In this document: positions 1 to 44,863 of the stretch, piece by piece | Position numbering within the stretch: the first letter of the stretch is position 1 | How the letters are laid out: the number at the start of each line of letters is the position of its first letter | Assembly (NCBI GenBank): GCA_034926225.1 | Contig: JAYFRF010000001.1 | Span: 165,962 to 229,961, forward strand | From: Clostridiaceae bacterium | Lineage (GTDB): Bacteria; Bacillota; Clostridia; Oscillospirales; QAMX01 | Direction: 5' to 3' | DNA length: 64,000 nucleotides | Translations under genes and position numbers: made by a program | Notes under the pieces: generated by a model | Databases searched by the model: none | The model's input: the letters and a program-made list of their open reading frames with translations, nothing else | What the model was told of the DNA's origin: nothing

Positions 1-85
1 TTACAAATATTCAGCTAAGACATCCAGCCTGACCACTTGACTATCAAAACTTCCCTTTTGGACTTGTTCCCAGGAACCTGCTAAA
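1..85 (-). repeat. Conserved intergenic module, copy R0 (partial; central unit missing, distal part cut by window edge)
   Basis: Plus strand reads GACATCCAGCCTGACCAC (19-36), then a CAAAA/TTTTG hairpin, then TTGGACTTGTTCC..GAACC. It aligns with copies R1-R3. Confidence 0.6.
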
Positions 86-89
86 CACC

Positions 90-761
90 TTATTTTATCT
101 GTTTGTTATAAATAATATTACACATGTGTCTATTGGGGTCATTATCAAAGGTAATAATGGCGTCAGAAAGAATAGCGCCCCATTCGCGCAATACACAAAC
201 TGCATCTTCAATAATTCTCAAGGTTGAATCTTCTTCTGTTAATAAATAGCTCAATTCTTTTTTGGGCTGTAATCTGATATTTTCTACTCCCATCTGCGGT
301 AATATTGATTCTAATGTTTTGCACTCAAACAGTGAACTTTTAACGCAACTGAATTGAAACCAACCATAATTATTAAAGTTATAGAGTTCTTTGGTTCCCC
401 ATTTCTCAAAAGCATACTCAACGTGAGTTGTACCTATACCGACTGGACATTTCAAATGCTCCAAGGCGTATGTAACAATCGTACCCAATTCATCTAGTTT
501 CCCTTTTTCACCATAATGGCTCCAATATGCTACTGCAAAATCATTGACCAGCTGTTCCTCGTTGACAGGGTGAGGGCGTGCATCACTATTGAACCACATA
601 AGACCGTGGCCTAATTCATGTATTAGATTATACCAATGAAAGTAGAGCTCAAACCTCTCTTTAGCATCTTCCCCTCCGAAAAGCAGGTCAACGATCTTGT
701 TATCATCAGGCGTTCCTTTCCCGTATCTACCCGTGATTATTTCTATAACTTTTTCATACAT
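90..761 (-). CDS. Hypothetical zincin-like protein with an HExxH motif (IHELGHGLMW)
   Basis: 223-aa ORF with a GGAGGG Shine-Dalgarno about 10 nt upstream of the ATG. It has a single HELGH motif. I do not recognise the family. AT-rich codon usage. Confidence 0.6.
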   Translation of the reverse strand: MYEKVIEIITGRYGKGTPDDNKIVDLLFGGEDAKERFELYFHWYNLIHELGHGLMWFNSDARPHPVNEEQLVNDFAVAYWSHYGEKGKLDELGTIVTYALEHLKCPVGIGTTHVEYAFEKWGTKELYNFNNYGWFQFSCVKSSLFECKTLESILPQMGVENIRLQPKKELSYLLTEEDSTLRIIEDAVCVLREWGAILSDAIITFDNDPNRHMCNIIYNKQIK

Positions 762-802
762 ATCTATACAGCCCTCCTACACATAATAAAAATTTCTTTG
801 TA

Positions 803-852
803 CTATTGCACTTTCTTTGTAATCAATACCACGACTCAACGTGGGATGGCAC
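803..852 (-). pseudogene. Displaced, degenerate copy of the rlmD 3' terminus (copy 3)
   Basis: Minus strand reads ..CACGTTGAGTCGTGGTATTGATTACAAAGAAAGTGCAATAG. This gives HVE then, after a 1-nt deletion, VVLITKKVQ*. The resident rlmD end is HVETVVLMSRVEK*. It shares the GTATTGAT core. Confidence 0.6.
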
Positions 853-915
853 AAATCATCTTAAATATCTTTTACTTAATTCTGCAAGTGCGTTATTTTC
901 TCATAATTTATCCCC

Positions 916-1578
916 CTATTTTGTATTCCACGGAATAGGAGCGTTCAACTCTATTGTTCCGGCCATAATAGGCGTTTTCTCCCCTGTATCCGGATTGGTA
1001 GGCTGGTCGATTTGATACAAAAACCCTGTCTTTCCGTATCTGCCAAGCTTGCTTTGGTTATAGTAGTCGCTGTCCAGGCAAATGTTGACGGTTTTCAATG
1101 CGACCGTCACTTCACGGCACCCAAAAAAACCGGCATTCTCGAATAGTTCATGTTCCCATAAAAACTCACATTCAATGTTGAGAAAACACTCTTTGATCCG
1201 CGGTGCGTTGACCTTCACGGCTCTTTCCGCCGTCAAACCAGTGACGGTAATTTCATCCGTCTCAAATTCATTGTTCCCAATTGTTTTTATACAGCGGTCA
1301 TATATATCATATGAAGGAAAGTTTAGCACGCAAACTCCGGTTTCTTTGAGCGATTGATACATATGTCCGCTTTTTGAGACTGCGCCCATAATACAGATAA
1401 ATTCATCTTTCCCGCCTCCTACAAAAGTTGACCATGATTGTAGACAAGCGTTTTCTTTCCCGTTTGATTTCCAGCCTGTGACGACGAATACCAAAGATGG
1501 CATGGCTGTCAAAAAGCCCTGCCATGTACACCATGGTTCAGTAATTTTTTCAGGTCTTGTAGAAAATTCCTTTTTCAT
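916..1578 (-). CDS. Flavin reductase-like (FMN-binding split-barrel) family protein
   Basis: 220-aa ORF with a GGGAGGG SD. The sequence pattern (..PSLVFVVTG..NG.EN..L.SW.TFV...) is typical of flavin reductase-like domain proteins. AT-rich. Confidence 0.6.
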   Translation of the reverse strand: MKKEFSTRPEKITEPWCTWQGFLTAMPSLVFVVTGWKSNGKENACLQSWSTFVGGGKDEFICIMGAVSKSGHMYQSLKETGVCVLNFPSYDIYDRCIKTIGNNEFETDEITVTGLTAERAVKVNAPRIKECFLNIECEFLWEHELFENAGFFGCREVTVALKTVNICLDSDYYNQSKLGRYGKTGFLYQIDQPTNPDTGEKTPIMAGTIELNAPIPWNTK

Positions 1579-1706
1579 GACATTACCCTCCCATACCGTA
1601 TATAAATTATATGTAATTCAAATCTATCAGAATGTCTGATATCCCTATTAACGTGAATCCATTTTGTTATTTCACAGACAAATAAACATATTATTATATT
1701 TCGAGT

Positions 1707-1877
1707 ATGTTGGTTAGCCTATTCTACTAACCACAAAACCTTGCCAAAATCAAATCACAAACCCATGTTAACTAAACTGACCACTCCCTAAGAGCCGACA
1801 TCTAAAATCGCTCTGTACGGGTCAAAATCATGCCGTTGGACTTGTTTCCACGAACCGAATTATAATGATTTTTACAC
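1707..1877 (-). repeat. Conserved intergenic module, copy R1
   Basis: Plus strand: ATGTTGGTTAGCCTATTCTA ... CTGACCAC ... GACATCTAAAATCGCTCTGT ... hairpin ... TTGGACTTGTTTCCACGAACCGAATTATAATGATTTTTACAC. It aligns with R2 and R3. Confidence 0.7.
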
Positions 1878-1955
1878 AATGGGCTTCGCACCATGTGTGC
1901 TTAACCCTTTATTTTATAAGGGCTATAATCATACCCATCTTTATATAAACTCCAC

Positions 1956-2804
1956 TCAGCAAAATGCGATTATCAAACCTCCGCGCTCGGCATAGAAACT
2001 ATCAAGCCCTCTTGTTTTTAGAATTGTCACTTTTGCGCTTTCCCAAAGTTGGAGAACGCCTGTGCGGACTTTATCAGCCATTTCTTCGTTAAAGCAATGG
2101 CTGATAGCTACCTCACCGCCTTGAAATCCACGCTGCTTCAAGTCGTCCAGTATCATGTCTATAACCTTGTCTGTTCCCCTTGCTTTTCCCTTAATCGCAA
2201 TTTTACCCTCAACGCTTGCTATTCCAACACCCCACATGCCAAATGCCTTAGCAATAAACCCTTTGAGTTTGCTCATTCGTCCGTTCTTTACGAGATTGTT
2301 AAAAGAAGATAGGGCAAAAGTAGTTTTAGTTTCCTCTAAGAACTTTTCTGCTTTTTCTACTATTGTTTCAATGGTTTGGTGACCTTTGATCCATTCAGCA
2401 ATATGATGAATACAGAGAGCGATCTCAGGACCTGTGGAAAGGGAATCCAAAACAACAATTCTCTTTTCCGGATGCTCTGACATTACTATATCGACAGCTG
2501 CCATAGCACTGTTATAACTGCCTGATAAATTGGCAGATATCGTGATCGCTATAGTTGTTTCTGCATTTTTAAACTGCTCTACCCACGCACCCGGGGAAGG
2601 ACAAGCAGAGGAACTAGCAGTGGGAAGTGCTTCCATATCATCAAGCATTTTGAGAACATCCAACTGCTCGTCATCTATATAATCAAGCTTTCCGACACTA
2701 AGGACAAATTCGACGGTAGAAAAACCGACCTCCTCACAGTCCACATCTTTTTTCATCAAATCGCAGGAAGAGTCTGCAACAATGTTCCATTTCATACTTA
2801 TCAT
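1956..2804 (-). CDS. degV: DegV family fatty-acid-binding protein
   Basis: 282-aa ORF with DegV hallmarks (IVADSSCDL near the N-terminus, LSGSYNSA). The start may instead be the ATG at 2795 (MKWNIV..). Confidence 0.85.
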   Translation of the reverse strand: MISMKWNIVADSSCDLMKKDVDCEEVGFSTVEFVLSVGKLDYIDDEQLDVLKMLDDMEALPTASSSACPSPGAWVEQFKNAETTIAITISANLSGSYNSAMAAVDIVMSEHPEKRIVVLDSLSTGPEIALCIHHIAEWIKGHQTIETIVEKAEKFLEETKTTFALSSFNNLVKNGRMSKLKGFIAKAFGMWGVGIASVEGKIAIKGKARGTDKVIDMILDDLKQRGFQGGEVAISHCFNEEMADKVRTGVLQLWESAKVTILKTRGLDSFYAERGGLIIAFC

Positions 2805-2849
2805 TATTTCCTAAACATTTTTTTGTGTAATAATTTTTGAGTACATCAA

Positions 2850-2974
2850 GGTTACCTAACTATGACATCTAACTTGACCACTCGCCAAGCACCGACATCT
2901 AAATCGCTCTGTCAAATTCGAAATCATAGCTTTTGACTTGTTTCCGTGAACCGAATTATCACGATTTTTTACAT
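2850..2974 (-). repeat. Conserved intergenic module, copy R2
   Basis: Plus strand: GGTTACCTAACTA-GACATCTAACTTGACCAC-N11-GACATCTAAATCGCTCTGT-GTCAAA/TTTGAC hairpin-TTGACTTGTTTCCGTGAACCGAATTATCACGATTTTTTACA. It lies directly downstream of rlmD-end copy 1. Confidence 0.7.
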
Positions 2975-3028
2975 TGGTTTGAACTCTCGAATCTTGAAAG
3001 GCTCATATATACTAGACTGTCCATGTAA

Positions 3029-3091
3029 TCATTTTTCGACCTTTGGCATCAATACTACATACCAAACGTGAGTGGTCGATATGGATGTCAC
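3029..3091 (-). pseudogene. Displaced, diverged copy of the rlmD 3' terminus (copy 1)
   Basis: Minus strand reads CACGTTTGGTATGTAGTATTGATGCCAAAGGTCGAAAAATGA, giving HVWYVVLMPKVEK*. The resident end is HVETVVLMSRVEK*. Hand alignment gives about 70% nucleotide identity, with a 12-nt perfect block CATCAATACTAC. Confidence 0.7.
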
Positions 3092-3149
3092 CCGATATTT
3101 TTCGTATAACAGGTGTTGTAGAACGCAAAGTTTATATCTTTCTGTACTT

Positions 3150-3208
3150 TTATGGCTTCATCAATACAACTGTCTCAACCTGTGTGTTCGTGGAAACATG
3201 TCGACATC
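3150..3208 (-). pseudogene. Displaced, diverged copy of the rlmD 3' terminus (copy 2, frameshifted)
   Basis: Minus strand reads GTCGACATGTTTCCACGAACACACAGGTTGAGACAGTTGTATTGATGAAGCCATAA. This gives VDMFPRT.H then, after a frameshift, VETVVLMKP*. The resident end is VDMFPRTAHVETVVLMSRVEK*. Confidence 0.7.
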
Positions 3209-3257
3209 ATTCTATATATGTGTTCATATAAATGATGTATTTATGCTGGTTTAACAT

Positions 3258-3353
3258 TCATTCTGACCTCTCAAGAAATAAGTAAATACCTACACGCTTT
3301 TCTCGCTTTGGAGGTAATGGTGGGATGAAATGAATTGTTTTATTATCAGCCAT
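3258..3353 (-). pseudogene. 31-codon stub resembling the N-terminus of a large serine recombinase (truncated)
   Basis: GGAGG lies 7 nt upstream of the ATG. The product is MADNKTIHFIPPLPPKREKRVGIYLFLERSE*. The ..IP.....KRVGIY.. segment resembles the leader running into the catalytic (K/R)xxxYxRVS motif, but the ORF breaks right after GIY. Assigned from memory of the family only. Confidence 0.35.
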
Positions 3354-3403
3354 TACAAAACCTCCGTTATTACAATTTCATTGTAAAATAGCGGTTTAAT
3401 TTT

Positions 3404-4171
3404 TCAATCTATTTTTCTCCATTTTAAATTTAGCGCTTTGATAAACGAACCCGTATAATTTAAATCCTCTTTATCCAAATCTTCATCTGCCCAAAAAACA
3501 CATTCATCTTCAACGAATAAGCATGCGCCAAAGATTTCTCGGCTATAATTTTCCAGCGCAGGCCTTAAATTCATTGATATCAGACCCTCAAAGTGAAGTT
3601 CGACAATACCATACCAACCGGAATTATTGAAGGTTACAATCAAATTCCTTTGACTATAATCCTCAACATACTGTAATTTATCAAGTGTTGAATCATGAAA
3701 TCCCGTAAACACATTTAATAACGTGTCCGCATCACTTTGAGTCTTAATATATGTCCACTGGTCAGTGTCACTTGGTTCCCTCACTTGAATTGAACACTCA
3801 CTTCTTGGTACGAACCTGTCTCGAAGAATTCTGTGCATAAAATCAAAGTCCTGATAAATCTCAGCATATCCGGAATATTGTTTTATAAAAGCATTTATAC
3901 CATTGCTCTTAAAGAAACGGTTGAGCTTTAAAACATTAACTTTATCATATGTTACCCATTCATTTCTGTCGGAATTGATTATCTCTATCAATGGGAGTAA
4001 CACGCTCTGGTCCTTGGTTTCTTTATCCAGATAATCCACTATCTCGAACGCGTCCTCTCTTGGGTTGAATACGATGTTGCGCTCATAATACCCTATATCA
4101 AGTTTTCCATAAATGATAGATTTATAGAAAAATCCGGTCTTTTTATCAAACACACGCGCAAACATTATCAT
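3404..4171 (-). CDS. Hypothetical protein (no recognisable domain)
   Basis: The ORF is open from 4222, but the AAGAGGAGG SD sits just before the ATGs at 4171 and 4165 (MIMFARVFDKK..). AT-rich. No motif recognised. Confidence 0.6.
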   Translation of the reverse strand: MIMFARVFDKKTGFFYKSIIYGKLDIGYYERNIVFNPREDAFEIVDYLDKETKDQSVLLPLIEIINSDRNEWVTYDKVNVLKLNRFFKSNGINAFIKQYSGYAEIYQDFDFMHRILRDRFVPRSECSIQVREPSDTDQWTYIKTQSDADTLLNVFTGFHDSTLDKLQYVEDYSQRNLIVTFNNSGWYGIVELHFEGLISMNLRPALENYSREIFGACLFVEDECVFWADEDLDKEDLNYTGSFIKALNLKWRKID

Positions 4172-4221
4172 CAACCTCCTCTTAACACTATGGCTATTAA
4201 TCATTTTGGCATATTTCAGCA

Positions 4222-4400
4222 ATGTTGATTAGCCTATTTTAGCTTTTTTATGTTAACATCCAACCTGACCACACAACCTTGGAAAATCCAAAAAACATCT
4301 AAATCGACTACTCGTCAAACACTGACATCTAAATCGCTCTGTCACAAAGAATATCGCTTGTTTCGACCTGTTCCCCCAAGGCAAAGAACCGACAAATTTT
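4222..4400 (-). repeat. Conserved intergenic module, copy R3 (with one extra 30-nt sub-unit)
   Basis: Plus strand: ATGTTGATTAGCCTATTTTA..AACATCCAACCTGACCAC..AACATCTAAATCGAC..GACATCTAAATCGCTCTGT..ACAAG/CTTGT hairpin..GACCTGTTCCC..GAACCGAC. It lies directly downstream of the resident rlmD stop and terminator. Confidence 0.7.
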
Positions 4401-4427
4401 AAGTAACGGTTTTTAGTAACAAATCCT

Positions 4428-4452
4428 GAAAAGCCTTTATTTCAAGGCTTTC
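4428..4452 (-). terminator. Stem-loop just after the rlmD stop (probable terminator)
   Basis: GAAAAGCCTT / AAGGCTTTC inverted repeat with a 6-nt loop, about 8 nt downstream of the rlmD stop. The U-run is weak. Confidence 0.45.
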
Positions 4453-4459
4453 CAAACCT

Positions 4460-5851
4460 CTACTTTTCTACCCTTGACATCAATACTACCGTCTCAACGT
4501 GTGCCGTACGGGGGAACATATCCACCGCTCTTGCGCGTACGGGGGCATAACTCCCGGCAAGGCGTTTGATATCCCGAGCCAGCGTTGCGGGGTCGCAGGA
4601 TACATACACAATCCGTTCGGGAGCCAGCGTAATCAGCATCGCAGCAGCATCCTCGGACAATCCTTTACGCGGGGGATCGACGATGATCGCATCGAAATGG
4701 TCGTTTACGGCGAGGGTTTTGGCATACTCGCCCGCATCTCCACAGTGGAAATCCGCATTCACGATACCATTCGCTGTAGCGTTCTCCCGAGCGTCGCAGA
4801 CGGCAGCTTCTACGATCTCGACGCCGGTCACATGTTCACAGACATCGGCACAGAACAAGCCGATGGTTCCGGTACCGCAGTAAAGATCCAAGAGGCGGCG
4901 GGGATGGTACGGGATACCGGTGTCGGAATGGGTCAGAAACGCTTTGGCACAGGAGTAAAGCTTGGCCGCAGCGAGTGGATTGACTTGAAAAAACGATGCG
5001 GGACGGAGTCGGAACGCAAGGGCGCCGATGGTATCGGTCAGCGTCTCGTCGCCCCAGAGGGTGATAAACTCCCGCCCGAGGATGACATTGGTTCGGACGG
5101 CATTGATGTTTAAAACGATACCGCTGACCGTAAGGCAGGCGGAACGGACAGCGTCGATAAGGGCTTCTTTGTGTGGGATCTCGCGTTTTGCGGCGACGAG
5201 TGTCAGGACAGTGTGTCGATCCTGAAAGGAGGTGCGAACACAGATATGACGGATCAGCCCGTGCCCGGAAAGCTCATTATAAGCGGGAATGCCGTGTGCA
5301 TTCATCCAACCCAGGACAGCCTGTGAAACCGCGGCAGCTTCCGGGGTTTGCAGACGGCAGTATTCTGTGGGTATGACGTCGTGCGTATTGGTACGGTAGA
5401 ATCCGCAGACGGCTTTCCCCGCCTCCCCTGCCACGGGGAACTGTGCGCGGTTGCGGTAGACGTCCACGAGCGGGGATGGAATAATCGGTTCTAACGGGAC
5501 GGAGATACCTGCGATGCGTTCGAAAGCGTCGCGTACCTTTTGTTCCTTATAGCGGAGCTCTTCCGCGTAGGTCATATGCCGTAATGCGCAGCCGCCGCAT
5601 TTGGGATAAACTGCGCAGTCCGGACAGATGCGTTCGGGGGATTCATCAACGACCCGCTCGAGCTTGCCAAAGGCATATGTTTTCTGTACCTTTAAAATAC
5701 GCAGGTCAACCGTTTCCCCAGCGATGGCGCAGGGCGTAAAGACGGCCATGCCATCGATATGGGTTACTCCCGCGCCTTCGCTGGTGTAGCCATCGATGGC
5801 GGCGGTTACGATGTCGTTTTTACGCATGTTCATAAAATACCGCACTTTCAT
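4460..5851 (-). CDS. rlmD: 23S rRNA (uracil-C5)-methyltransferase, RlmD/RumA (TrmA) family
   Basis: It has an N-terminal TRAM-like domain, a Cys cluster (CPDC..C..CGGC) for an Fe-S centre and a class I SAM-MTase core (DLYCGTGTIG; DPPRKG). The start is uncertain: 5851, 5833 or 5827, all overlapping the upstream gene's end. Confidence 0.9.
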   Translation of the reverse strand: MKVRYFMNMRKNDIVTAAIDGYTSEGAGVTHIDGMAVFTPCAIAGETVDLRILKVQKTYAFGKLERVVDESPERICPDCAVYPKCGGCALRHMTYAEELRYKEQKVRDAFERIAGISVPLEPIIPSPLVDVYRNRAQFPVAGEAGKAVCGFYRTNTHDVIPTEYCRLQTPEAAAVSQAVLGWMNAHGIPAYNELSGHGLIRHICVRTSFQDRHTVLTLVAAKREIPHKEALIDAVRSACLTVSGIVLNINAVRTNVILGREFITLWGDETLTDTIGALAFRLRPASFFQVNPLAAAKLYSCAKAFLTHSDTGIPYHPRRLLDLYCGTGTIGLFCADVCEHVTGVEIVEAAVCDARENATANGIVNADFHCGDAGEYAKTLAVNDHFDAIIVDPPRKGLSEDAAAMLITLAPERIVYVSCDPATLARDIKRLAGSYAPVRARAVDMFPRTAHVETVVLMSRVEK

Positions 5852-7583
5852 GGGGAGATAAGGTGACGAAAATCTGACCGTCCGTTGGGTTGAATACGGC
5901 GTCCGTCCATAATTCGTGCATCGGTTTTACTGACGAAAACGTAAAGGTTTCGGATGACTCACCGAAGTTGATGACGATGTACCGTCTCCCCTGCTTCCAG
6001 ATACAGGGATAGTCGCGAACAAACTGATCCAGCGGGACGGCGCTGTCCTCGGAGCGCAGAGACAGGGCCTTTTCGATGATCGAACGGCCTTCGCTGTTTA
6101 AAACAGCGAGTCGGTCGGACAGATTCATGTTGCCGCCGGTCAGGAGAACAACCGCCGCCCAGGAACGAGCCTCCGCGAGGGTGAAGTCCTCTCCCGAACG
6201 CCAGCGGCTGTGATTGGGAGTGTAGCGAGCAGGGTCGATGGTATTGCGCTGCGGGTCGGTATCCGTATTCTGCCCACGTACGACGAGGAAATCGATATCA
6301 TTAACCCAGATACGGCGGTGCTCGCCCCAGTGATGCTGGTAGCATTCCATCGCCCAAAGAACATGGTTCCAGGTGATGTGGATATCGATGCCGGTACGTC
6401 CTGCGTCCGCATCCGGGGACGCCGCTTCAACCGGTAACGAGCAGCCAATGATGACGCTGTCGTGTACGCATTCGCGGATAAGCGAGAATAACCGACGCAG
6501 AGCTTCGTACTGAGAGACGGTTTTATCGTAAAAATATTTGACATGGCGTAAGCAACCGACGTAATCGACCTTATAGAGCCGGAAACCGGCGTCATAGAGC
6601 CTAGTATAAAGCGAACGGATAAAGTCGACGGTATCCGGATGGGTCGGGTCGAGGACATACATGCCGTCCTCCGTGACAGGATTGCTGTATTCGTCGCGCA
6701 GATAGCCCGTCATACGGCGCTGTGCGTAGGAGCAGAGCGTCCAGACGTGCAGAGGGGCTGACCAGATACCGGGAATTAAGCCGTGGGCGCGGATCGTGTC
6801 GGCGGCGGCCTGTAAGCCGTGAGGGAAACGGAAATTCGGGTACCAGTCACCTTGAATGGCCTGCCACCCGTCGTCTAAAGTGAAATAACGAAGATTATCG
6901 CGATATGCCGGCACTTGATCGATAACCGACAGGTTTTCCTCCATGCAGGCTTCGTCAATATCGGTAAAATAGTAATCCCAGGTGTTATAGCCGACGATAC
7001 TTTTTTGGTAATGCCAGAGTTGGGGCAGGAGGGTAAAGTATTCGTCTAACGCGGGGGCGAGCCGGCCGCACGCGAAGTACAGCTCCGCCGACTCGAAGGT
7101 ATCCGACGTAAATGAACGCGGCGGTGTAACAGAGAGAGAGACTTCCGCAACACCGCTGTGACTGCGGATATGGAAGGCTTCGTCAAAACACAAAGGATAA
7201 ATGGAACGCGCCATAAAGCCTTCGCCGTCTTTGTATAGATAAACGGCTGGTGCGGTGATGTCAAACGTATCGGAAAGTGTATGGAAACCGGACTCGATGC
7301 CTTTGGAACGAACGGCATGCGCTCCATCCGGATATGCTACAGCGGCGATGAGGGGTGAAAAAGCGTCGAGTGTGCAGGGCGCGGCAAAATGGATGGTCAG
7401 CCGCGCCGTGTAGCCGAACGGCATAGCGCGCAGCTTCCACTGTGCATAAATGCCGTCATGCGCGTAGGTATATGCGCCGTCGATAAAGGGCAGTTCGGCG
7501 ATGGAGACGATGCTGGCCTTCCCGTCGATGGTGAAGGAGAAACGCGGAAACCCGAGAAAATCAGGCAGTTTTATCTGTGGCAT
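5820..7583 (-). CDS. Alpha-galactosidase-like glycoside hydrolase (clan GH-D, GH36/GH27-like)
   Basis: 587 aa with a GGAGGGG SD. It has the FTLDDGWQ motif and the YKVDY (KxD) motif characteristic of melibiase-type enzymes. Confidence 0.7.
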   Translation of the reverse strand: MPQIKLPDFLGFPRFSFTIDGKASIVSIAELPFIDGAYTYAHDGIYAQWKLRAMPFGYTARLTIHFAAPCTLDAFSPLIAAVAYPDGAHAVRSKGIESGFHTLSDTFDITAPAVYLYKDGEGFMARSIYPLCFDEAFHIRSHSGVAEVSLSVTPPRSFTSDTFESAELYFACGRLAPALDEYFTLLPQLWHYQKSIVGYNTWDYYFTDIDEACMEENLSVIDQVPAYRDNLRYFTLDDGWQAIQGDWYPNFRFPHGLQAAADTIRAHGLIPGIWSAPLHVWTLCSYAQRRMTGYLRDEYSNPVTEDGMYVLDPTHPDTVDFIRSLYTRLYDAGFRLYKVDYVGCLRHVKYFYDKTVSQYEALRRLFSLIRECVHDSVIIGCSLPVEAASPDADAGRTGIDIHITWNHVLWAMECYQHHWGEHRRIWVNDIDFLVVRGQNTDTDPQRNTIDPARYTPNHSRWRSGEDFTLAEARSWAAVVLLTGGNMNLSDRLAVLNSEGRSIIEKALSLRSEDSAVPLDQFVRDYPCIWKQGRRYIVINFGESSETFTFSSVKPMHELWTDAVFNPTDGQIFVTLSPHESAVFYEHA

Positions 7584-7664
7584 AGGAGACCCCTCCGATC
7601 ATTTTGTATTTGTATTATACCCCGTTTTCGGCGGTTTGTCCAGTATAGCAACGATGAGTTTTGA

Positions 7665-7693
7665 TTGACAAACAGGATGTTATCTGCGATAAT
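7665..7693 (+). promoter_or_regulatory. Sigma-A-type promoter for the GH95 operon
   Basis: TTGACA (7665-7670), 17-nt spacer, GATAAT (7688-7693) with TGCG upstream. It is followed by a leader of about 100 nt. Confidence 0.5.
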
Positions 7694-7802
7694 CATGTTA
7701 GCGAGAGCCGTTCGCGGCTGTGTTTTATACGGCAATCCCTGCTGCATACATATGCGGAGATTGCGGATTCAACGCACAAACTCGATAAAGGAAGGTATGT
7801 AT

Positions 7803-10058
7803 ATGAACGCATCCCATGAACTATACTACACCTGCCCGGCGGCGGACTGGAACGCCGCTTTGCCGCTCGGAAACGGGCGCTTGGGCGCGATGGTTTACGG
7901 CGGGGTCGAACGGGAGAGAGTATCCTTAAACGAGGATACGCTCTGGACGGGCTATCCGACCTTTTACGAGCAGCCGGAAGCGCTAGCCGCTTTCAATAAA
8001 GCGCGAGAGCTGACGAAAAAGGGCGAATATGTCGCGGCGCAGATACTGCTGGAGGATAAGCTCACTTCAAAACCGACGCAGATGTATTTGCCGCTTGGCG
8101 ATCTGGAGCTGGATTTCGGGTCGGCAGGCGATATGGCTGCTTATCGACGTACACTGGATTTACGGAATGCCGCCCATACGGTGGAGTACAGCGCAAACGG
8201 CGTAACCTATACAAGGGAAACGATCATTTCCGAGCCGGCGCAGGTGCTTGCCATGCGAATTACAGCTTCGGAACCCGGAAAGGTCGCTTTTACTGCACGG
8301 CTTGTGTCGCAGCTTCGGACGACGGCAACCTCCTGCGGCGAACGGATCACAATGGAGGGAATTTGTCCGTCTACCCAGATCGAACGCGGCGAAAATCAGG
8401 GCGCGGCGGTGCAGATTTATGATGCATTGCATCCGGGCATCCGATTTGCGGCGCAGGTGGGTATTGTCACAGACGGCGAAGTCAAGACGGAAAGGGATGC
8501 CGTTACCGTAAGCGGAGCGAATGCGGCAACGCTGTACCTTGCGGTGCGGACGTCTTTTAACGGCTGGCAAAAAGATCCGACGACGGACGGACGTGCCTAT
8601 CTGGAGCCATGCATAGCCGATATCGACGCCGCGATTGCCACGGGATACGATGCGATCTTTGCGGCGCACGTCGCGGATTACCGGGCGCTGTACGATCGGA
8701 CGGAGCTTTCGCTGCCGGAGAGTGAAAGCAGCGGGCTTGCGACGGATGAGCGGCTTGATGCGCATGAAAACGGCGCGGAAGATCAGGCATTATATGCGCT
8801 GCTGTTCCATTACGGCCGTTACTTAACCATTGCCGCCTCTCGCACCGGAACTCAGCCGACGAATTTGCAGGGTATCTGGAATCATCGCCTGATGCCGCCC
8901 TGGAACTCAAACTATACGATCAACATCAACACGGAGATGAATTATTGGCCGACGCTTATGACGAACCTTTCGGAATGCTATGAGCCGCTGCTGAAGATGA
9001 TCGGTGATATCCGGGTAAACGGTGCAAGGACGGCAAAGACCTATTACGGTGCACGGGGATTTTGCTCGCATCACAATACGGATCTTTGGCGGCTGACGAC
9101 GCCGGTCGGTAATGGTCAGAGGGAGTGCGCGGTATGGTCGTTCTGGCCGCTGTCGGCGGGCTGGTTTATGCGGCATCTATATGAATACTGGGAGTATACT
9201 CAGGACGAGTGCTTCCTGCGGGATACGCTTTTACCGACGCTCAAGGAATGCGCGGAGTTCTATCTTGATATGCTGGATGAGGACAGCGGCGGAATGCTTG
9301 TCTTTCGTCCGTCCACGTCGCCGGAGAACCACTTTGTTCTGCCGGACGGCACGCGCTGTCCGGTGGCGGATCATACGGCGATGACGCAGGCGATTGTGCG
9401 GGATGTGTTCCGCATGACGCTGGACGCGGCGGATAAAACGGGTGCATGCGACTGGACTATCGATAGCATCCGGGAAGCGCTGCCGCGTGTACGCGGGTAT
9501 GAGGGTAACTCGACCGGTTCCCTCAAGGAGTGGAACGAGGACTTTCAGCAAAACGAGCCGCATCACCGGCATCTGTCGCATCTGTACGGACTACATCCCG
9601 GACGGGAACTTGCCTATGGAACGCCCATGGCAGAAGCGGCAAAGCAAAGCCTGATCGAGCGCGGCGACGAAGGTACGGGCTGGTCACTTGGCTGGAAGGT
9701 AAACATGTGGGCGCGGCTTCGTGACGGAGACCACGCATTGAAACTGATTGACATGCAGCTGCGCACTTGCCCGAGCGACGCGGGATATCCGACGCCGGGC
9801 GGTTCGTATCCGAACCTTTTAGACGCGCATCCGCCGTTCCAGATCGACGGTAACTTCGGCGTCTGCGCCGGCATCGCGGAGATGCTTTTGCAGGGCGACA
9901 CGCAGAGTCCCCTATTTCTGCCGGCACTCCCCTCCTCCTGGAAGAAAGGAACCGTAAGAGGGCTTCGCATCCGAGGGGGTAAAACCGTCGATCTTGCATG
10001 GGAAGACGGGAAAATACAATCTGCGGTGATCCGCGAGTCAGGAGATTGTGACATATGA
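7803..10058 (+). CDS. Alpha-L-fucosidase, glycoside hydrolase family 95
   Basis: The N-terminus (..[30 protein letters not shown]) and overall length are typical of GH95. AAGGAAGG SD precedes the ATGs at 7797 and 7803. The longer ORF from 7665 is an upstream extension. Confidence 0.85.
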
Positions 10059-15583: not shown

Positions 15584-17080
15584 TTGGACTTTATACGTAA
15601 TTTCCCGTTTTTCTCCATCATGCTTGCGATGCTGGCGGCGATCGTCACTTCGGTATTGCCCAAAAAAGCCGCAAGATTATTAAACAGTGCCGTCGTTTCC
15701 GTCTGTATTCTCCTGAACGCGGCAGTATTGTGGTATACGCTGTATACAGGCGCAAGCTTTACGTACATGATGGGGCATTTCCCTGCGCCGTGGGGCAATG
15801 AGCTTCGGGCGGGTGCTTTGGAAGCGCTGATGGCGACGGTGTTCAGCGGGATTCTGTTGTTTTCCGTGATCGGCGGCGCAAAGCATATCGATCTTGACTT
15901 GGAGGAGCGGAAGGTCAACCTCTATTATGTGATGATCAACCTGCTTGAGGGTGCGCTGCTAGCGATGCTCTATACGAATGACATCTTCACCGGGTACGTC
16001 TTCATCGAAATTTTGACGATCGCCTCCTGCGGCATCCTGATGATCCGGCAGATCGGCAGAACCACGCTCGCGGCGGTGCGCTACATGATCATGAGCCTTT
16101 TGGGATCGGGTCTGTTTTTAATCGGCGTGGTGCTCTTATACGACATGACTGGGCATCTGCTGATGGAGAACATGCACACGGCGATTGCCGCACTGGTGGA
16201 AAGCGGACAGTATACGCTGCCGCTGACCATTGCCGTGGGACTGATCACGATGGGGCTTTGCATCAAATGCGGCTTGTTTCCGTTCCATTTCTGGATGCCG
16301 GACACCTACGGATACTCTACGCCGGCGTCCAGTGCGATTTTGTCGGGGCTGATTTCGAAAATCTATATCATGATGCTGATCAAGGTCTTTTACCGTGTGG
16401 TCGGCGTCGATATCATCCGCGCAAGCAAGATTTTAAACGTGCTGTTCGTGTTCGGACTCTGTGCGATCATCGTCGGATCGATCAGCGCCATTCGCGAGAA
16501 CGATATCCGCCGGATGACGGCATTTTCCTCGGCGGCGCAGATCGGCTACATTTTTGTCGGTATCGGGCTTGGCACGACTGCCGGGATGGTGGCAAGTCTG
16601 TTTCATATCATCACGCACGCGGTTACAAAACCGATGCTCTTTATCAGCGCATCCGGGTTGTCCGATGTGTCCGGCGGCTCGAAGAAATTCCGGGACCTGC
16701 AGGAATCCGGATACCGAAATCGCCCGGCGGGGCTTGCGTTTTCCGTCGGCGCGCTGTCGATGGTAGGTCTGCCACTGTTTGCGGGATTCATCTCGAAGAT
16801 TCTATTTGCGACCGCATCGGTGCAAAATCCTCGGAAGATGCTGCCCACCCTAATCGTTCTCGCAATCAGTACCGTTTTAAACGCGGTCTACTTTCTGCGT
16901 ACGGTCATCCGTATCTACCGTCCCGCGGAAGGGGAAACCCATACGGAGCGCCTGACTGTCCGTAACCAGCGTGCGTTTACCCTTTCGCTGATCGTCTTCG
17001 CGGCGCTGAACATCCTGCTCGGATTATGGTCAACCCCGGTGACTGACATACTGACGGCAGGACTTGCCATGTTTTCATAA
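15584..17080 (+). CDS. Proton-conducting antiporter-like subunit (MrpD/NuoN-type), paralog 1
   Basis: 498 aa, about 14 TM helices. TTG start after a GGGGAGGAAAAG SD. Has the conserved FPFHFWMPD and AILSG blocks of the NuoLMN/MrpAD family. Confidence 0.85.
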   Translation: MDFIRNFPFFSIMLAMLAAIVTSVLPKKAARLLNSAVVSVCILLNAAVLWYTLYTGASFTYMMGHFPAPWGNELRAGALEALMATVFSGILLFSVIGGAKHIDLDLEERKVNLYYVMINLLEGALLAMLYTNDIFTGYVFIEILTIASCGILMIRQIGRTTLAAVRYMIMSLLGSGLFLIGVVLLYDMTGHLLMENMHTAIAALVESGQYTLPLTIAVGLITMGLCIKCGLFPFHFWMPDTYGYSTPASSAILSGLISKIYIMMLIKVFYRVVGVDIIRASKILNVLFVFGLCAIIVGSISAIRENDIRRMTAFSSAAQIGYIFVGIGLGTTAGMVASLFHIITHAVTKPMLFISASGLSDVSGGSKKFRDLQESGYRNRPAGLAFSVGALSMVGLPLFAGFISKILFATASVQNPRKMLPTLIVLAISTVLNAVYFLRTVIRIYRPAEGETHTERLTVRNQRAFTLSLIVFAALNILLGLWSTPVTDILTAGLAMFS

Positions 17081-40412: not shown

Positions 40413-40488
40413 TGGAGCGGGTTACGAGATTCGAACTCGCTACCTCCACCTTGGCAAGGTGGCGCTCTACCAAATGAGCTAAACCCGC
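40413..40488 (-). tRNA. tRNA-Gly (GCC), copy 2
   Basis: Hand-folded cloverleaf with 7-bp acceptor stem, anticodon loop TTGCCAA, T-loop TTCGAAT and encoded CCA. Identical to the copy at 40587. Confidence 0.9.
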
Positions 40489-40586
40489 AGATAATTGCAA
40501 AAAATAATGTACCAAAAAAATATCGCGGAGAGACACCGTATGTGTTCTACCGATCAACAAGGGAACAACCTTAACGAAAGGAAAAG

Positions 40587-40662
40587 TGGAGCGGGTTACG
40601 AGATTCGAACTCGCTACCTCCACCTTGGCAAGGTGGCGCTCTACCAAATGAGCTAAACCCGC
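40587..40662 (-). tRNA. tRNA-Gly (GCC), copy 1
   Basis: 76 nt, identical to 40413..40488. Confidence 0.9.
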
Positions 40663-40666
40663 AAAT

Positions 40667-40742
40667 TGGTGCCTCCGGGCGGAATTGAACCACCGACACG
40701 GGGATTTTCAGTCCCCTGCTCTACCAACTGAGCTACAGAGGC
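40667..40742 (-). tRNA. tRNA-Phe (GAA)
   Basis: Cloverleaf folded by hand, with anticodon loop CTGAAAA and encoded CCA. Confidence 0.9.
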
Positions 40743-40764
40743 AAATAAAATAAAAAGGGGAGAA

Positions 40765-40841
40765 TGGCGACCCGAATGGGGCTCGAACCCATGACCTCTA
40801 GCGTGACAGGCTAGCGTTCTAACCAGCTGAACTACCGGGCC
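40765..40841 (-). tRNA. tRNA-Asp (GUC)
   Basis: Cloverleaf folded by hand, with anticodon loop CTGTCAC and encoded CCA. Confidence 0.9.
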
Positions 40842-40888
40842 GCATATTGCGTTGCAGTTTGAGGCGCGGTATCCACCTCAAAAAACAT

Positions 40889-40964
40889 TGGTGGAAACAA
40901 CAGGGCTCGAACCTGTGACCCCATGCTTGTAAGGCATGTGCTCTTCCAGCTGAGCTATGCTTCC
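40889..40964 (-). tRNA. tRNA-Val (UAC)
   Basis: Cloverleaf folded by hand, with anticodon loop CTTACAA and encoded CCA. Confidence 0.9.
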
Positions 40965-43443: not shown

Positions 43444-43520
43444 CGGGGTGTAGCTCAGTTTGGTAGAGCGCTTGGTTCGGGACCAAGAGGCCGGAGGTTC
43501 AAGTCCTCTCACTCCGACCA
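43444..43520 (+). tRNA. tRNA-Pro (CGG)
   Basis: Cloverleaf folded by hand, with anticodon loop TTCGGGA and encoded CCA. Confidence 0.9.
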
Positions 43521-44290: not shown

Positions 44291-44863
44291 AATGTTCTGT
44301 GTGCACCTTTTTATTATTTCCACACCTTTTAACGAAAAGTCGGAGAGGTTTGCATTTCGTATCAAAGTAGGTCACTACTTTCAAGAAATAGGACGATTTT
44401 TAATCATGATAACGTCCTATTTCTTTTTGTTTTACCCAAATAGAACTGCCCAATATTGGGCAAAAAACGAAAACATTGTATATGGTTTAGCTCTCATCGT
44501 TTTATAATATTGTTAAATTATCGAGTGATCAGGCACAGAATATTGACTTTAGCATATGACTGTAATATAATATATATAATCTCTTTGCACTGCATTACAT
44601 TTCTTTTATAGAAATGCGAGATCAACAGTACAAACTGAGCAGGCGATGCCTGTAAGGGCATGGGGCTGGGCCGCTCTGCAAGCGGCAGCAGGATGCAATC
44701 ACGCATATCTGTGGGACGGTATGTATGTTCCATGGGATATGCTGTTTTTATACCTATAGCATTATACAGCTATATCGAGGGAACAACCGACCTCAATGGA
44801 GTGCCATAGGAGAAATCAAGACACCGTAATGCCGTACGGCAGCGGAAAACGGAGGATTCTTTT

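Follow-up and report, generated by a model that had tools for sequence, protein, structure and literature searches.

We conclude, with a probability of about 0.8, that positions 1-4460 of the window (the whole 64,000-nucleotide stretch of Clostridiaceae DNA that was analysed), together with at least 1.2 kb beyond its edge, hold at least five integrative elements in a decayed tandem array and that each element would have inserted site-specifically in the last codons of rlmD. The repeated module of this array, R, is identified by sequence comparison as the conserved arm adjoining the crossover site of mobile elements that integrate in these codons. The elements belong to a widespread and apparently undescribed family of serine-recombinase elements, which share a conserved ~190-bp repeat-bearing arm and each carry a single cargo gene of high variability. 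That elements insert into rumA/rlmD and accrete was known before, whereas neither R nor the 2-kb elements presented below appear to have been described.

In R, an inverted DMFPRT-like motif is followed by four 20-bp direct repeats at spacings of 30, 30 and 39 bp. The GC content falls from 0.55-0.60 inside rlmD to 0.32-0.44 over positions 1-4400, and all genes of the AT-rich region 1-4460 lie on the same strand as rlmD (minus). This region contains four R copies, three copies of the rlmD terminus and one serine-recombinase stub; every item that a sequence-only reading of the window had listed downstream of rlmD is present, in the minus-strand order that it gave. That reading ended the series at the window edge; the items up to R0 are there, but the array goes on for at least 1.2 kb, a stretch (L001:4581-5730) in which a GGDEF gene, two further B repeats and, at L001:5686-5730, a partial fifth R are seen. 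No recognisable native rlmD terminus was found at its far end. The window ORFs gave no PHROG or Pfam match to phage structural, lysis or replication genes, and no conjugation-module, relaxase or oriT domains were detected in the ORFs of 1-4460 or of intact small elements.

The rlmD gene (4460-5851, minus strand) is intact and encodes a RumA-type 23S rRNA m5U methyltransferase of 463 aa in which Pfam recognises tRNA_U5-meth_tr, TRAM and methyltransferase domains, the match extending to profile position 356 of 357. The final ~7 codons have the form found in the elements, the terminus being identical to the element consensus, and the gene contains the att core GTTGAGACGGTAGTATTGATG (4478-4498, minus), with the crossover within GGTATTGATGTC. 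The replacement terminus is followed by a terminator hairpin (4425-4456, minus; terminator scan), a conserved part of the junction module that is kept in 50 junctions with compensatory stem variants. R3 (4256-4400, minus) retains the inverted motif A and repeats B1 (4325-4344), B3 (4295-4314) and B4 (4256-4275) and is devoid of B2. After it lies a 'box', AATAGGCTAAYCAACAT..GAAATAT (4198-4241, minus), which is also present after R1 (1683-1726) and after the R of SR307-type elements. The cargo gene of this first unit (3404-4222, minus) encodes a product of at most 272 aa. The recombinase-like stub that had been suspected further on is real (3258-3353, minus): its first 24 codons (MADNKTIHFIPPLPPKREKRVGIY) match the N-terminus of a family of 307-aa serine recombinases, and an internal deletion of ~0.95 kb joins them to the element's right-hand end. 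This end carries one direct B repeat (3254-3273, minus; PWM 13.5 bits, background frequency 2.6e-6), found at the equal position in L120, L148, L158, L133, L126 and L219. The attR-type junction of the unit, rlmD-end copy 2 (3159-3202, minus), is composed of motif A in direct orientation (3185-3202) and the core (3159-3179). Since the stub matches the recombinase N-terminus and the right-end sequence comes directly after it, the unit next to rlmD is recognised as a mini-element whose recombinase gene has been deleted internally. It is the only unit with a co-oriented serine recombinase distal to rlmD, in the form of this 24-codon remnant; the ORFs and Pfam matches of the other window units revealed no serine recombinase gene.

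The other units follow on the minus strand. An inverted B repeat (3069-3088, plus strand; PWM 28 bits) abuts rlmD-end copy 1 (3030-3068, minus), an arrangement that recurs in L203; this copy is a degenerate core with the replacement terminus (..GTAGTATTGATGCCAAAGGTCGAAAAATGA), followed by a hairpin remnant and R2. R2 (2862-2985, minus) has motif A (2935-2952), B1 (2895-2914) and B2 (2865-2884), after which it ends, and its cargo is a DegV family gene (1956-2804, minus; Pfam DegV 3.5e-42, TIGR00762). R1 (module copy 1690-1917, in all 1690-1930, minus) possesses a complete hairpin of its own (CCCTTataaaataAAGGG), motif A (1839-1856), a B1 with a 1-nt insertion, B2 (1768-1787), B4 in degenerate form and the box, whereas the att core is lost. 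The following gene (916-1578, minus) is flavin-reductase-like (Pfam Flavin_Reduct 6.8e-12), Pfam thus confirming this assignment and that of degV, both already proposed from the sequence. A degenerate rlmD-end copy 3 (CACGTTGAGTCGTGGTATTGAT; 822-843, minus) shows a 1-nt deletion and a short terminus-like tail and is not followed by R. The next cargo gene (90-761, minus) encodes a 223-aa protein with an HExxH motif; a family match was sought for it and for the cargo of the first unit, and none was obtained. R0 (20-98, minus) comprises a hairpin remnant, motif A (61-78) and a single B repeat (20-39). The units headed by R1 and R0 had been described as devoid of an rlmD-end copy: the core is indeed absent, but remnants of the terminator hairpin of the junction module are kept. 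From these junction remnants we infer that both units probably arrived site-specifically.

Two signature motifs of R occur 3 and 4 times in the 64 kb, against 0.11 and 0.01 occurrences expected by chance, and all of them lie inside positions 1-4400. A genome-wide dispersed repeat, which the sequence-only reading had named as fatal to its interpretation, is not what is seen in the 64-kb window, where R and its motifs are restricted to the rlmD locus; the recombinase neighbourhood that it had suggested looking for exists, as R adjoins serine recombinases in other contigs. About 110 copies of R were found in public contigs, 23 of the 66 scorable ones directly after rlmD, and R lies ~50 bp past rlmD even where the homologs are only 44-49% identical to the window protein (L004, L017, L030). 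In 52 distinct junctions the conserved stretch runs exactly from the core up to repeat four, with variable sequence on either side. R contains no inverted repeat or attC-like palindrome, and the att core, scored as a 20-mer, gave no match. A structured RNA (riboswitch, sRNA or leader) was ruled out: R has no Rfam match, and covariation is almost nil in the RNAalifold consensus (-5.6 kcal/mol). We suggest that R could be a DNA-level array of putative protein-binding sites and, by analogy with res accessory sites or arm-type sites, may assist or regulate the recombinases as an arm. It should be noted that one mini-element (L223) has a recombinase with 88% identity and a diverged repeat array, which weakens a simple recombinase-repeat specificity.

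The excised and integrated forms of one temperate phage locate the crossover. In the attP form (L095) the order is lysogeny genes, attP, terminus, hairpin, R, GGDEF, three recombinases, lysin and tail; in the attL form (L085) the phage is integrated into rlmD. The two sequences diverge to the left of the GGTATTGATGTC block and are identical to its right, indicating that the arm is element-borne and narrowing the crossover to GGTATTGATGTC, GA included, within a core of which the window holds copies. This pair bears out the proposal that elements enter the rlmD 3' end with a replacement terminus. The terminus is identical across hosts whose RlmD proteins share ~45% identity. The family arm next to the attachment site spans ~280 bp, made of replacement rlmD terminus, terminator hairpin and R, and the arm in the window is of the kind seen beside attP of this phage; temperate phages with a three-gene serine-recombinase module belong to the family.

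The intact small members, or mini-elements, measure ~2 kb and comprise the replacement terminus, the terminator, R, one cargo gene, a serine recombinase gene (307 aa) and, in the right end, one further 20-mer. They were found in L120, L126, L133, L148, L158, L206 and L221, and an attR in L219. The recombinase has catalytic and 'Recombinase' domains and is devoid of a zinc ribbon; over 120 recombinase clusters show 86% identity or more, nearly all of 305-310 aa. Its gene ends ~130 bp short of the core, so that attR does not lie inside it. Large single recombinases (558-595 aa) that do run into the core are encoded beside R in L148, L158, L206 and L113. Two hosts without any blastn similarity between their rlmD genes share one mini-element of 2.7 kb at 99.85% identity, and its downstream neighbours differ between the contigs. 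Circular forms were looked for and not found. Repeated insertion, as proposed for the window, has counterparts in tandem stacks in many other contigs (L120, L148, L158, L206 and L228, the last with three elements). The small size of the window units had been taken to speak against their being whole elements; they look tiny because intact members are only ~2 kb, or because a unit corresponds to the att-proximal end of a prophage. The first genes after R fall into 55 families among 66 genes, are co-oriented in 54 of 61 cases and include Gabija GajA, HEPN, Fic, SUKH, NACHT and cyclase proteins.

These data favour a stepwise origin of the array. Each incoming element would have recombined with the functional rlmD end, which would remain available for insertion since the arm imitates the native terminus, and older units would have been displaced downstream by newer ones. 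Later deletions would have eliminated the recombinase genes, as well as the att cores of two units, and spared the cargo genes. Mini-elements may also spread in tandem with phages or ICEs using the same site and be co-excised with them. For this species, neither an empty site nor a differently filled array was recovered: exact sequence look-ups for other versions of the locus returned the same assembly only, and the closest rlmD locus (78% identity) stops at a contig edge.

The array could instead have been built elsewhere, for instance on a phage or island, by R-R recombination or earlier accretion, and have arrived as one or a few composite elements. R1 and R0, both devoid of an att core, have in common a hairpin subtype and an extra 20-bp stretch; partial Rs breaking at 20-mers and recombinase-less R-cargo-R stretches occur in L146, L161, L109 and L099, and accreted tandems are co-transferred in other systems (PMC5704250). 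We nevertheless regard such an origin as unlikely, since three separate core/terminus copies in unequal states of decay are the expected trace of stepwise integration, and the cargo-gene combination of the window was found at no other locus examined.

The sequence-only reading had favoured a cassette or gene-capture platform over whole elements. An integron-like platform, in which a resident recombinase places promoterless cassettes at R sites, would account for co-oriented single-gene units of very diverse cargo with a repeated module between them. It is, however, highly improbable: no integrase gene lies at or near the locus, an IntI tyrosine integrase, which integrons carry with attI and a Pc promoter next to the array, being absent among the ORFs of 1-8000 and of the 10 kb past the edge, R has no attC-like palindrome or fold, and the platform is contradicted by the presence of R inside mobile elements, including a phage genome, beside their own attP and recombinases, intact units bringing their own recombinase. 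Of that earlier interpretation, the rlmD 3'-end elements with a replacement terminus are thus retained and the platform is abandoned. The fixed distance between R and rlmD in many genomes might also suggest a native regulatory or structural part of the rlmD downstream region (an RNA or a host-factor site), locally duplicated and vertically inherited. This we find scarcely credible: only 3 of the 80 rlmD loci from species representatives have R, which is AT-rich foreign DNA, far more conserved than the adjoining rlmD genes and present in phage genomes away from rlmD, as in the contradicting attP form L095, and which shows neither Rfam match nor covariation.

What the ~2-kb units represent is a more tentative matter. 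They might form a distinct class of minimal integrative 'self-inserting cassettes', a serine-recombinase counterpart of integron cassettes, sharing the rlmD site and the arm with temperate phages and spreading by tandem accretion and co-excision; R would then be a new multi-site accessory arm (four plus one 20-mers) that gives directionality or regulation to recombinases lacking the coiled-coil control of large serine integrases. We consider this whole proposal possible, though doubtful. If the 307-aa recombinase acts alone on the ~40-bp core and a defined arm, it would be a compact integrase, site-specific and with a natural target that is conserved, and the five 20-mers would then allow a test of how accessory sites control serine integrases. 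Cargo replacement in the family is extremely rapid, with 55 families at 66 loci. The attachment arm is shared with phages, and the conserved arm could serve as a practical metagenome probe for variable cargo, candidate defence genes included.

In streptococci and clostridia, ICEs that carry resistance are already known to land at the 3' end of rumA/rlmD; the much smaller and very abundant family described here also uses it, in Clostridia of gut and digester origin. The literature supports the statement, in the sequence-only reading, that this gene end is a streptococcal ICE target: insertion of serine-recombinase ICEs and IMEs into rumA is documented, tandem insertions included (PMC4120198, PMC4701971, PMC5704250), with CIME accretion (also PMC11578063). 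Such elements (vanG elements, ICE-r, ICE_Spy2096_rumA, IME_SpnAP200_rumA, CTn5) use the same target codons, replace the methyltransferase C-terminus, carry a co-oriented recombinase distal to rlmD and insert in tandem. By contrast, the mini-elements are of ~2 kb without conjugation or mobilisation genes, and their 307-aa recombinase has neither zinc ribbon nor coiled coil. In rumA elements, attR lies inside the recombinase gene, the 3' ends being reciprocally exchanged (PMC4701971), unlike in the mini-elements. The rumA elements are flanked by a repeated core with a GA crossover dinucleotide; in the present family the crossover is narrowed no further than GGTATTGATGTC, a stretch that contains GA. 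Accounts of the streptococcal elements mention no multi-repeat arm such as R.

The tandem units of the window, at one att site with att copies between them and without recombination or transfer genes, resemble CIMEs of the ICESt1/ICESt3 type (PMC5704250), decayed elements stacked by successive site-specific integration for which cis-mobilisation with a functional neighbour is possible, as it would be here. Those cases involve tyrosine integrases at the ends of tRNA or other genes, whereas serine recombinases are involved here, and the units headed by R1 and R0, devoid of att cores and thus of the two att sites of a cis-mobilisable CIME, no longer qualify in the strict sense. SCC and pseudo-SCC elements of staphylococci are likewise inserted by serine recombinases at the 3' end of a gene that encodes an rRNA methyltransferase, rlmH (orfX), in tandem arrays with recombinase-less units; their ends are not known to have anything beyond short direct repeats, such as an R-like arm. 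Ccr proteins are large serine recombinases, and the 307-aa protein scores 95 bits with the CcrB model, whose cut-off is 900; together with the RumA-type target, this score rules out an SCC array. Defence genes travel alongside in SCC arrays (PMC11470126). Integron arrays share with the window co-oriented single-gene units, diverse cargo and a repeated module between them, but rely on a single resident tyrosine integrase and a folded single-stranded attC, whereas here each intact unit has a serine recombinase and R is non-palindromic. For R alone, the res sites of Tn3/gamma-delta resolvase and Sin provide a working analogy: both place repeated sites within ~200 bp of a serine-recombinase crossover, upstream of the transcription unit containing the recombinase, the res subsites being inverted-repeat dimer sites and R presenting four direct 20-mers, with one more at the other end, as putative binding sites.

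Downstream of the rlmD stop codon (position 4460) the G+C content of the window is 32-44%, against 55-60% in rlmD and beyond, and all sizeable ORFs there lie on the minus strand. Repeat search and direct alignment placed four copies of the module R, an inverted motif followed by 20-bp repeats, on this strand at 4256-4400 (R3), 2862-2985 (R2), 1690-1917 (R1) and 20-98 (R0), together with rlmD terminus copies, likewise on the minus strand, at 3159-3202, 3030-3068 and, in degenerate form, 822-843. Two signature motifs of R occur 3 and 4 times in the 64-kb window, where 0.11 and 0.01 occurrences are expected, and all of them fall within 1-4400. The window RlmD is an intact RumA-type methyltransferase according to Pfam, which also upheld the identities of the DegV and flavin-reductase-like genes. 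The four R modules, the three rlmD-end copies and the two named cargo genes of the sequence-only reading were all borne out. The 223-aa HExxH protein and the 272-aa protein gave no family match, and PADLOC returned no meaningful match for the window cargo. Outside the array, the 20-mer matrix gave a single weak match, probably due to chance (16394-16413, plus strand, 12.3 bits). The window also carries a NiCo riboswitch (44625-44721, plus strand, 72.9 bits), a cluster of five tRNAs (Gly, Gly, Phe, Asp, Val; 40413-40964, minus strand) and a tRNA-Pro (43444-43520, plus strand), all unrelated to the array.

Among 80 rlmD loci fetched from species representatives, R was found about 50 bp downstream of rlmD in three (L004, L017 and L030). 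The RlmD proteins of these loci are only 44-47% identical to that of the window, and the final ~25 nt of rlmD and the hairpin are near-identical to the window. In L017 and L030, R is followed by one or two cargo genes and then by a convergent recombinase trio composed of a 520-aa serine recombinase, a 138-aa 'Recombinase'-domain protein and a second 520-aa serine recombinase. Further copies were sought with an 18-nt pattern taken from R, which yielded 13 full-length copies in viral contigs and 93 true copies among 120 matches in metagenomes. R is present in elements that carry serine recombinases (L085, L095 and L120). L085 is a prophage: next to the rlmD end it has R and a GGDEF gene, then the recombinase trio, and after these the SHOCT, endolysin and tail genes. 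The attP form of this phage is represented by L095, in which lysogeny-type HTH genes precede attP, and attP is followed by the same terminus and hairpin, then by R, the GGDEF gene and the recombinases. Comparison of the two placed the crossover within GGTATTGATGTC. All DNA to the right of it belongs to the phage, R included, along with the replacement terminus and the terminator, which makes R the att-proximal arm of a mobile element and not a chromosomal structure. These results show that the arm is element-borne and that the attachment core lies in rlmD.

It should be noted that an R-GGDEF segment identical to that of this phage also occurs in L087 (2820-4130), where a different left arm lies upstream, beside a type I restriction-modification and SIR2 island, and an IS3-family element stands downstream in place of the recombinases. 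Three further junctions (L091:8200-8340, L099:1010-1400 and L105:3350-3650) have, upstream of the core, a pair of direct DMFP-like motifs together with a core-like sequence and a 20-mer that are both inverted, an arrangement which points to a left (P) arm of greater complexity in some members of the family.

The arm is conserved in 52 distinct junctions over about 280 bp that reach from CACGTTGAGACGGTAGTATTGATGTCAAGGG through the fourth repeat; identity exceeds 90% in many columns, and the flanks on both sides are unrelated. R itself contains motif A, an inverted copy of a motif resembling the DMFPRT-coding stretch of rlmD, and four direct 20-mers, of consensus close to GAGTGGTCAGGTTAGATGT, at constant start-to-start spacings of 30, 30 and 39 bp; in some members only, a 'box' (AATAGGCTAAYCAACAT) comes after the repeats. 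Matches to the 20-mer matrix of such strength have a frequency of 1e-5 to 1e-6 in a 2.3-Mb background. A diverged arm in L223 (4700-4960) still has the hairpin, an A-like motif, four repeats spaced by about 30 bp and the box, its repeats reading GAGTGGACATTATTACT, GAGTTGACGGTATAGATG and similar, which the R profile fails to detect; for the accompanying recombinase the identity is 88%.

Several readings of R and its repeats were considered. R might act as an RNA; no Rfam match was found at E<=1 or at gathering score, and RNAalifold on 50 copies gave a consensus fold of -5.6 kcal/mol with 2 covarying pairs, so the conservation of R acts on DNA. The 20-mers might be degenerate copies of the att core, with which they agree by eye at 13 of 20 positions, yet the core region, scored with a PWM of 146 repeats, fails by reaching only the 1% background level. 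An obvious sigma-70 promoter is not supported either, since 18 sites were counted where 12.6 +/- 3.3 were expected and no site is common to the repeats; candidate promoters are the box that follows R and a site that precedes the recombinase stub in the window. The repeats have a fixed spacing, the opposite end of the element has one 20-mer as well (direct or sometimes inverted), R lies beside the crossover, and the architecture persists in L223 despite diverged repeats; these four features suggest that R is a putative protein-binding array that may aid or regulate recombination, which is the weakest step of our interpretation.

Downstream context was scored wherever an R copy had 4 kb or more of sequence on that side (36 copies): 20 face a convergent large-recombinase module, three precede a gene for a 307-aa serine recombinase, and 13 have neither. 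Upstream of R, scored in the 66 copies with sequence there, rlmD lies directly adjacent in 23, a co-oriented large recombinase runs into the core in six, and 37 show another context, either an attP form or a different junction. In 54 of 61 loci the gene that comes first after R is co-oriented. These first genes usually start no more than 120 bp away, and 66 of them belong to 55 families; cargo families include GGDEF, GajA, HEPN, Fic/Bro-N, SUKH, SRA, nucleotide cyclase, NACHT and SF0329.

The 307-aa recombinase gene, co-oriented with R and rlmD in many loci, encodes Resolvase and Recombinase domains without a zinc ribbon. Its family comprises more than 120 clusters, at least 86% identical and nearly all of 305-310 aa, and bears only generic names in the source databases. 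L120 holds a complete 2.0-kb unit, in which core, terminus, hairpin, R, box, a 171-aa SF0329 gene and the recombinase (L120:6509-7432) are followed by a right end with one further 20-mer and by the core again; a second arm with a Gabija gajA gene comes directly after. Such elements are abundant in some digester or gut samples, for instance ERZ27245371 and SRR27243473. One 2.7-kb mini-element, with genes for a 121-aa protein, a WapI-domain protein, the 307-aa recombinase and a 110-aa protein, is 99.85% identical in two hosts (L223:4690-7400 and L225:4690-7400) whose rlmD genes and flanks have no blastn similarity to each other, and its downstream neighbours vary between contigs. L228 carries a tandem of two mini-elements and a phage-type unit, L219 an attR with a non-element terminus, and L221 is a contig with cores at its bounds. 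Three short contigs with the 307-aa recombinase, inspected for circular forms, had no terminal overlap. Taken together, these loci and the phage show that intact small and phage-sized family members exist, that they stand in tandem with one another and that they move between hosts.

The window can be read unit by unit along the minus strand. Unit 1 (about 4498 to 3159) comprises the core within rlmD with the terminus and terminator, next R3 (without repeat 2), the box and a cargo gene; a recombinase remnant, the 20-mer of the right end, motif A and core copy 2 close the unit. The remnant reads MADNKTIHFIPPLPPKREKRVGIY, the N-terminus of the 307-aa recombinase being VADNKRIHYIPPLPQKREKRVGIYCRVST, and is directly continued by the conserved right-end sequence (..atttcttgagaggtcagaatgaatgttaaaccagcataaa..), so that an internal deletion of about 0.95 kb took out the recombinase gene. 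The ~70 bp (3089-3158) that separate core copy 2 from an inverted 20-mer match no part of the junction consensus; the codons that come first after the core, AAG CCA TAA, may be the end of an older gene. Beyond this spacer, the inverted 20-mer abuts core copy 1; then come a terminus, what is left of a hairpin, R2, cut off after repeat 2, and degV. The degV stop codon is fused to the tail of a further terminus with a hairpin that is complete, after which R1 and the flavin-reductase-like gene are found. Core copy 3 precedes a terminus-like tail and the HExxH gene, without R. The last part consists of a hairpin remnant, R0, a GGDEF gene and two more 20-mers; the GGDEF gene and these 20-mers are seen in L001, from a second assembly of the same organism, which runs past the window edge, and the array is therefore longer than the window shows. 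All cargo ORFs of the window are intact, and none of the recombinases is.

We infer that the arm terminus imitates the native rlmD terminus, so that an occupied rlmD end would stay a target. Newcomers at this end would push older units downstream, and later deletions would have removed the recombinase genes and some of the cores, the cargo being kept. The 2-kb mini-element has no transfer genes; the simplest account of its spread would be that it is excised together with a neighbouring phage or ICE using the same core, and cis-mobilisation of accreted elements is documented in other systems (PMC5704250).

An exact look-up of the window RlmD in other strains gave no match, a look-up by neighbouring genes gave one other sample only, with contigs broken exactly at the core, and the contig of the nearest species representative ends 31 bp past rlmD. 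Two contigs of the Logan assembly of this organism have their breakpoint precisely at the att core, L218 ending ~33 nt and L001 starting ~25 nt before the rlmD stop, and many metagenome contigs start or end there too (L085, L088, L092, L094, L221). These breaks likely reflect a ~30-nt core and terminus common to many elements within one sample. In other Oscillospiraceae the rlmD end has received insertions of one or two genes (L032:11306-12700, L058:11330-13240, L022:11300-12660, L019 and L010), flanked by a duplicated terminus but without R, the duplicate in L022 spanning about 65 codons of rlmD. In L007, L012 and L027, also without R, recombinase genes lie on the opposite strand 1.0-1.5 kb after rlmD; their products, ~42% identical to large serine recombinases over ~300 residues, may represent another rlmD-associated lineage.

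Single-serine-integrase ICEs and IMEs that insert into rumA, exchange its 3' end on integration and use a GA target dinucleotide have been described, as have tandem vanG/ICE-r insertions at this gene (PMC4120198, PMC4701971, PMC5704250), and Dehalobacter has a rumA hotspot with 'nested recombinase islands' (PMC11578063). In the streptococcal rumA elements, a large recombinase runs into the core, as in the six junctions scored upstream of R. Since insertion into rumA and tandems are already described, the window is a new instance of a known process. Recent work (2025-26) on small serine recombinases that mark defence systems concerns Gin/Hin-like enzymes of ~190 aa and does not address rlmD or R (PMC13552941). 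In a full-text literature search, neither the arm R nor the 307-aa recombinase mini-elements, nor an arm shared by these and triple-recombinase phages, was seen described. The accretion process itself is known; these three features appear to be undescribed.
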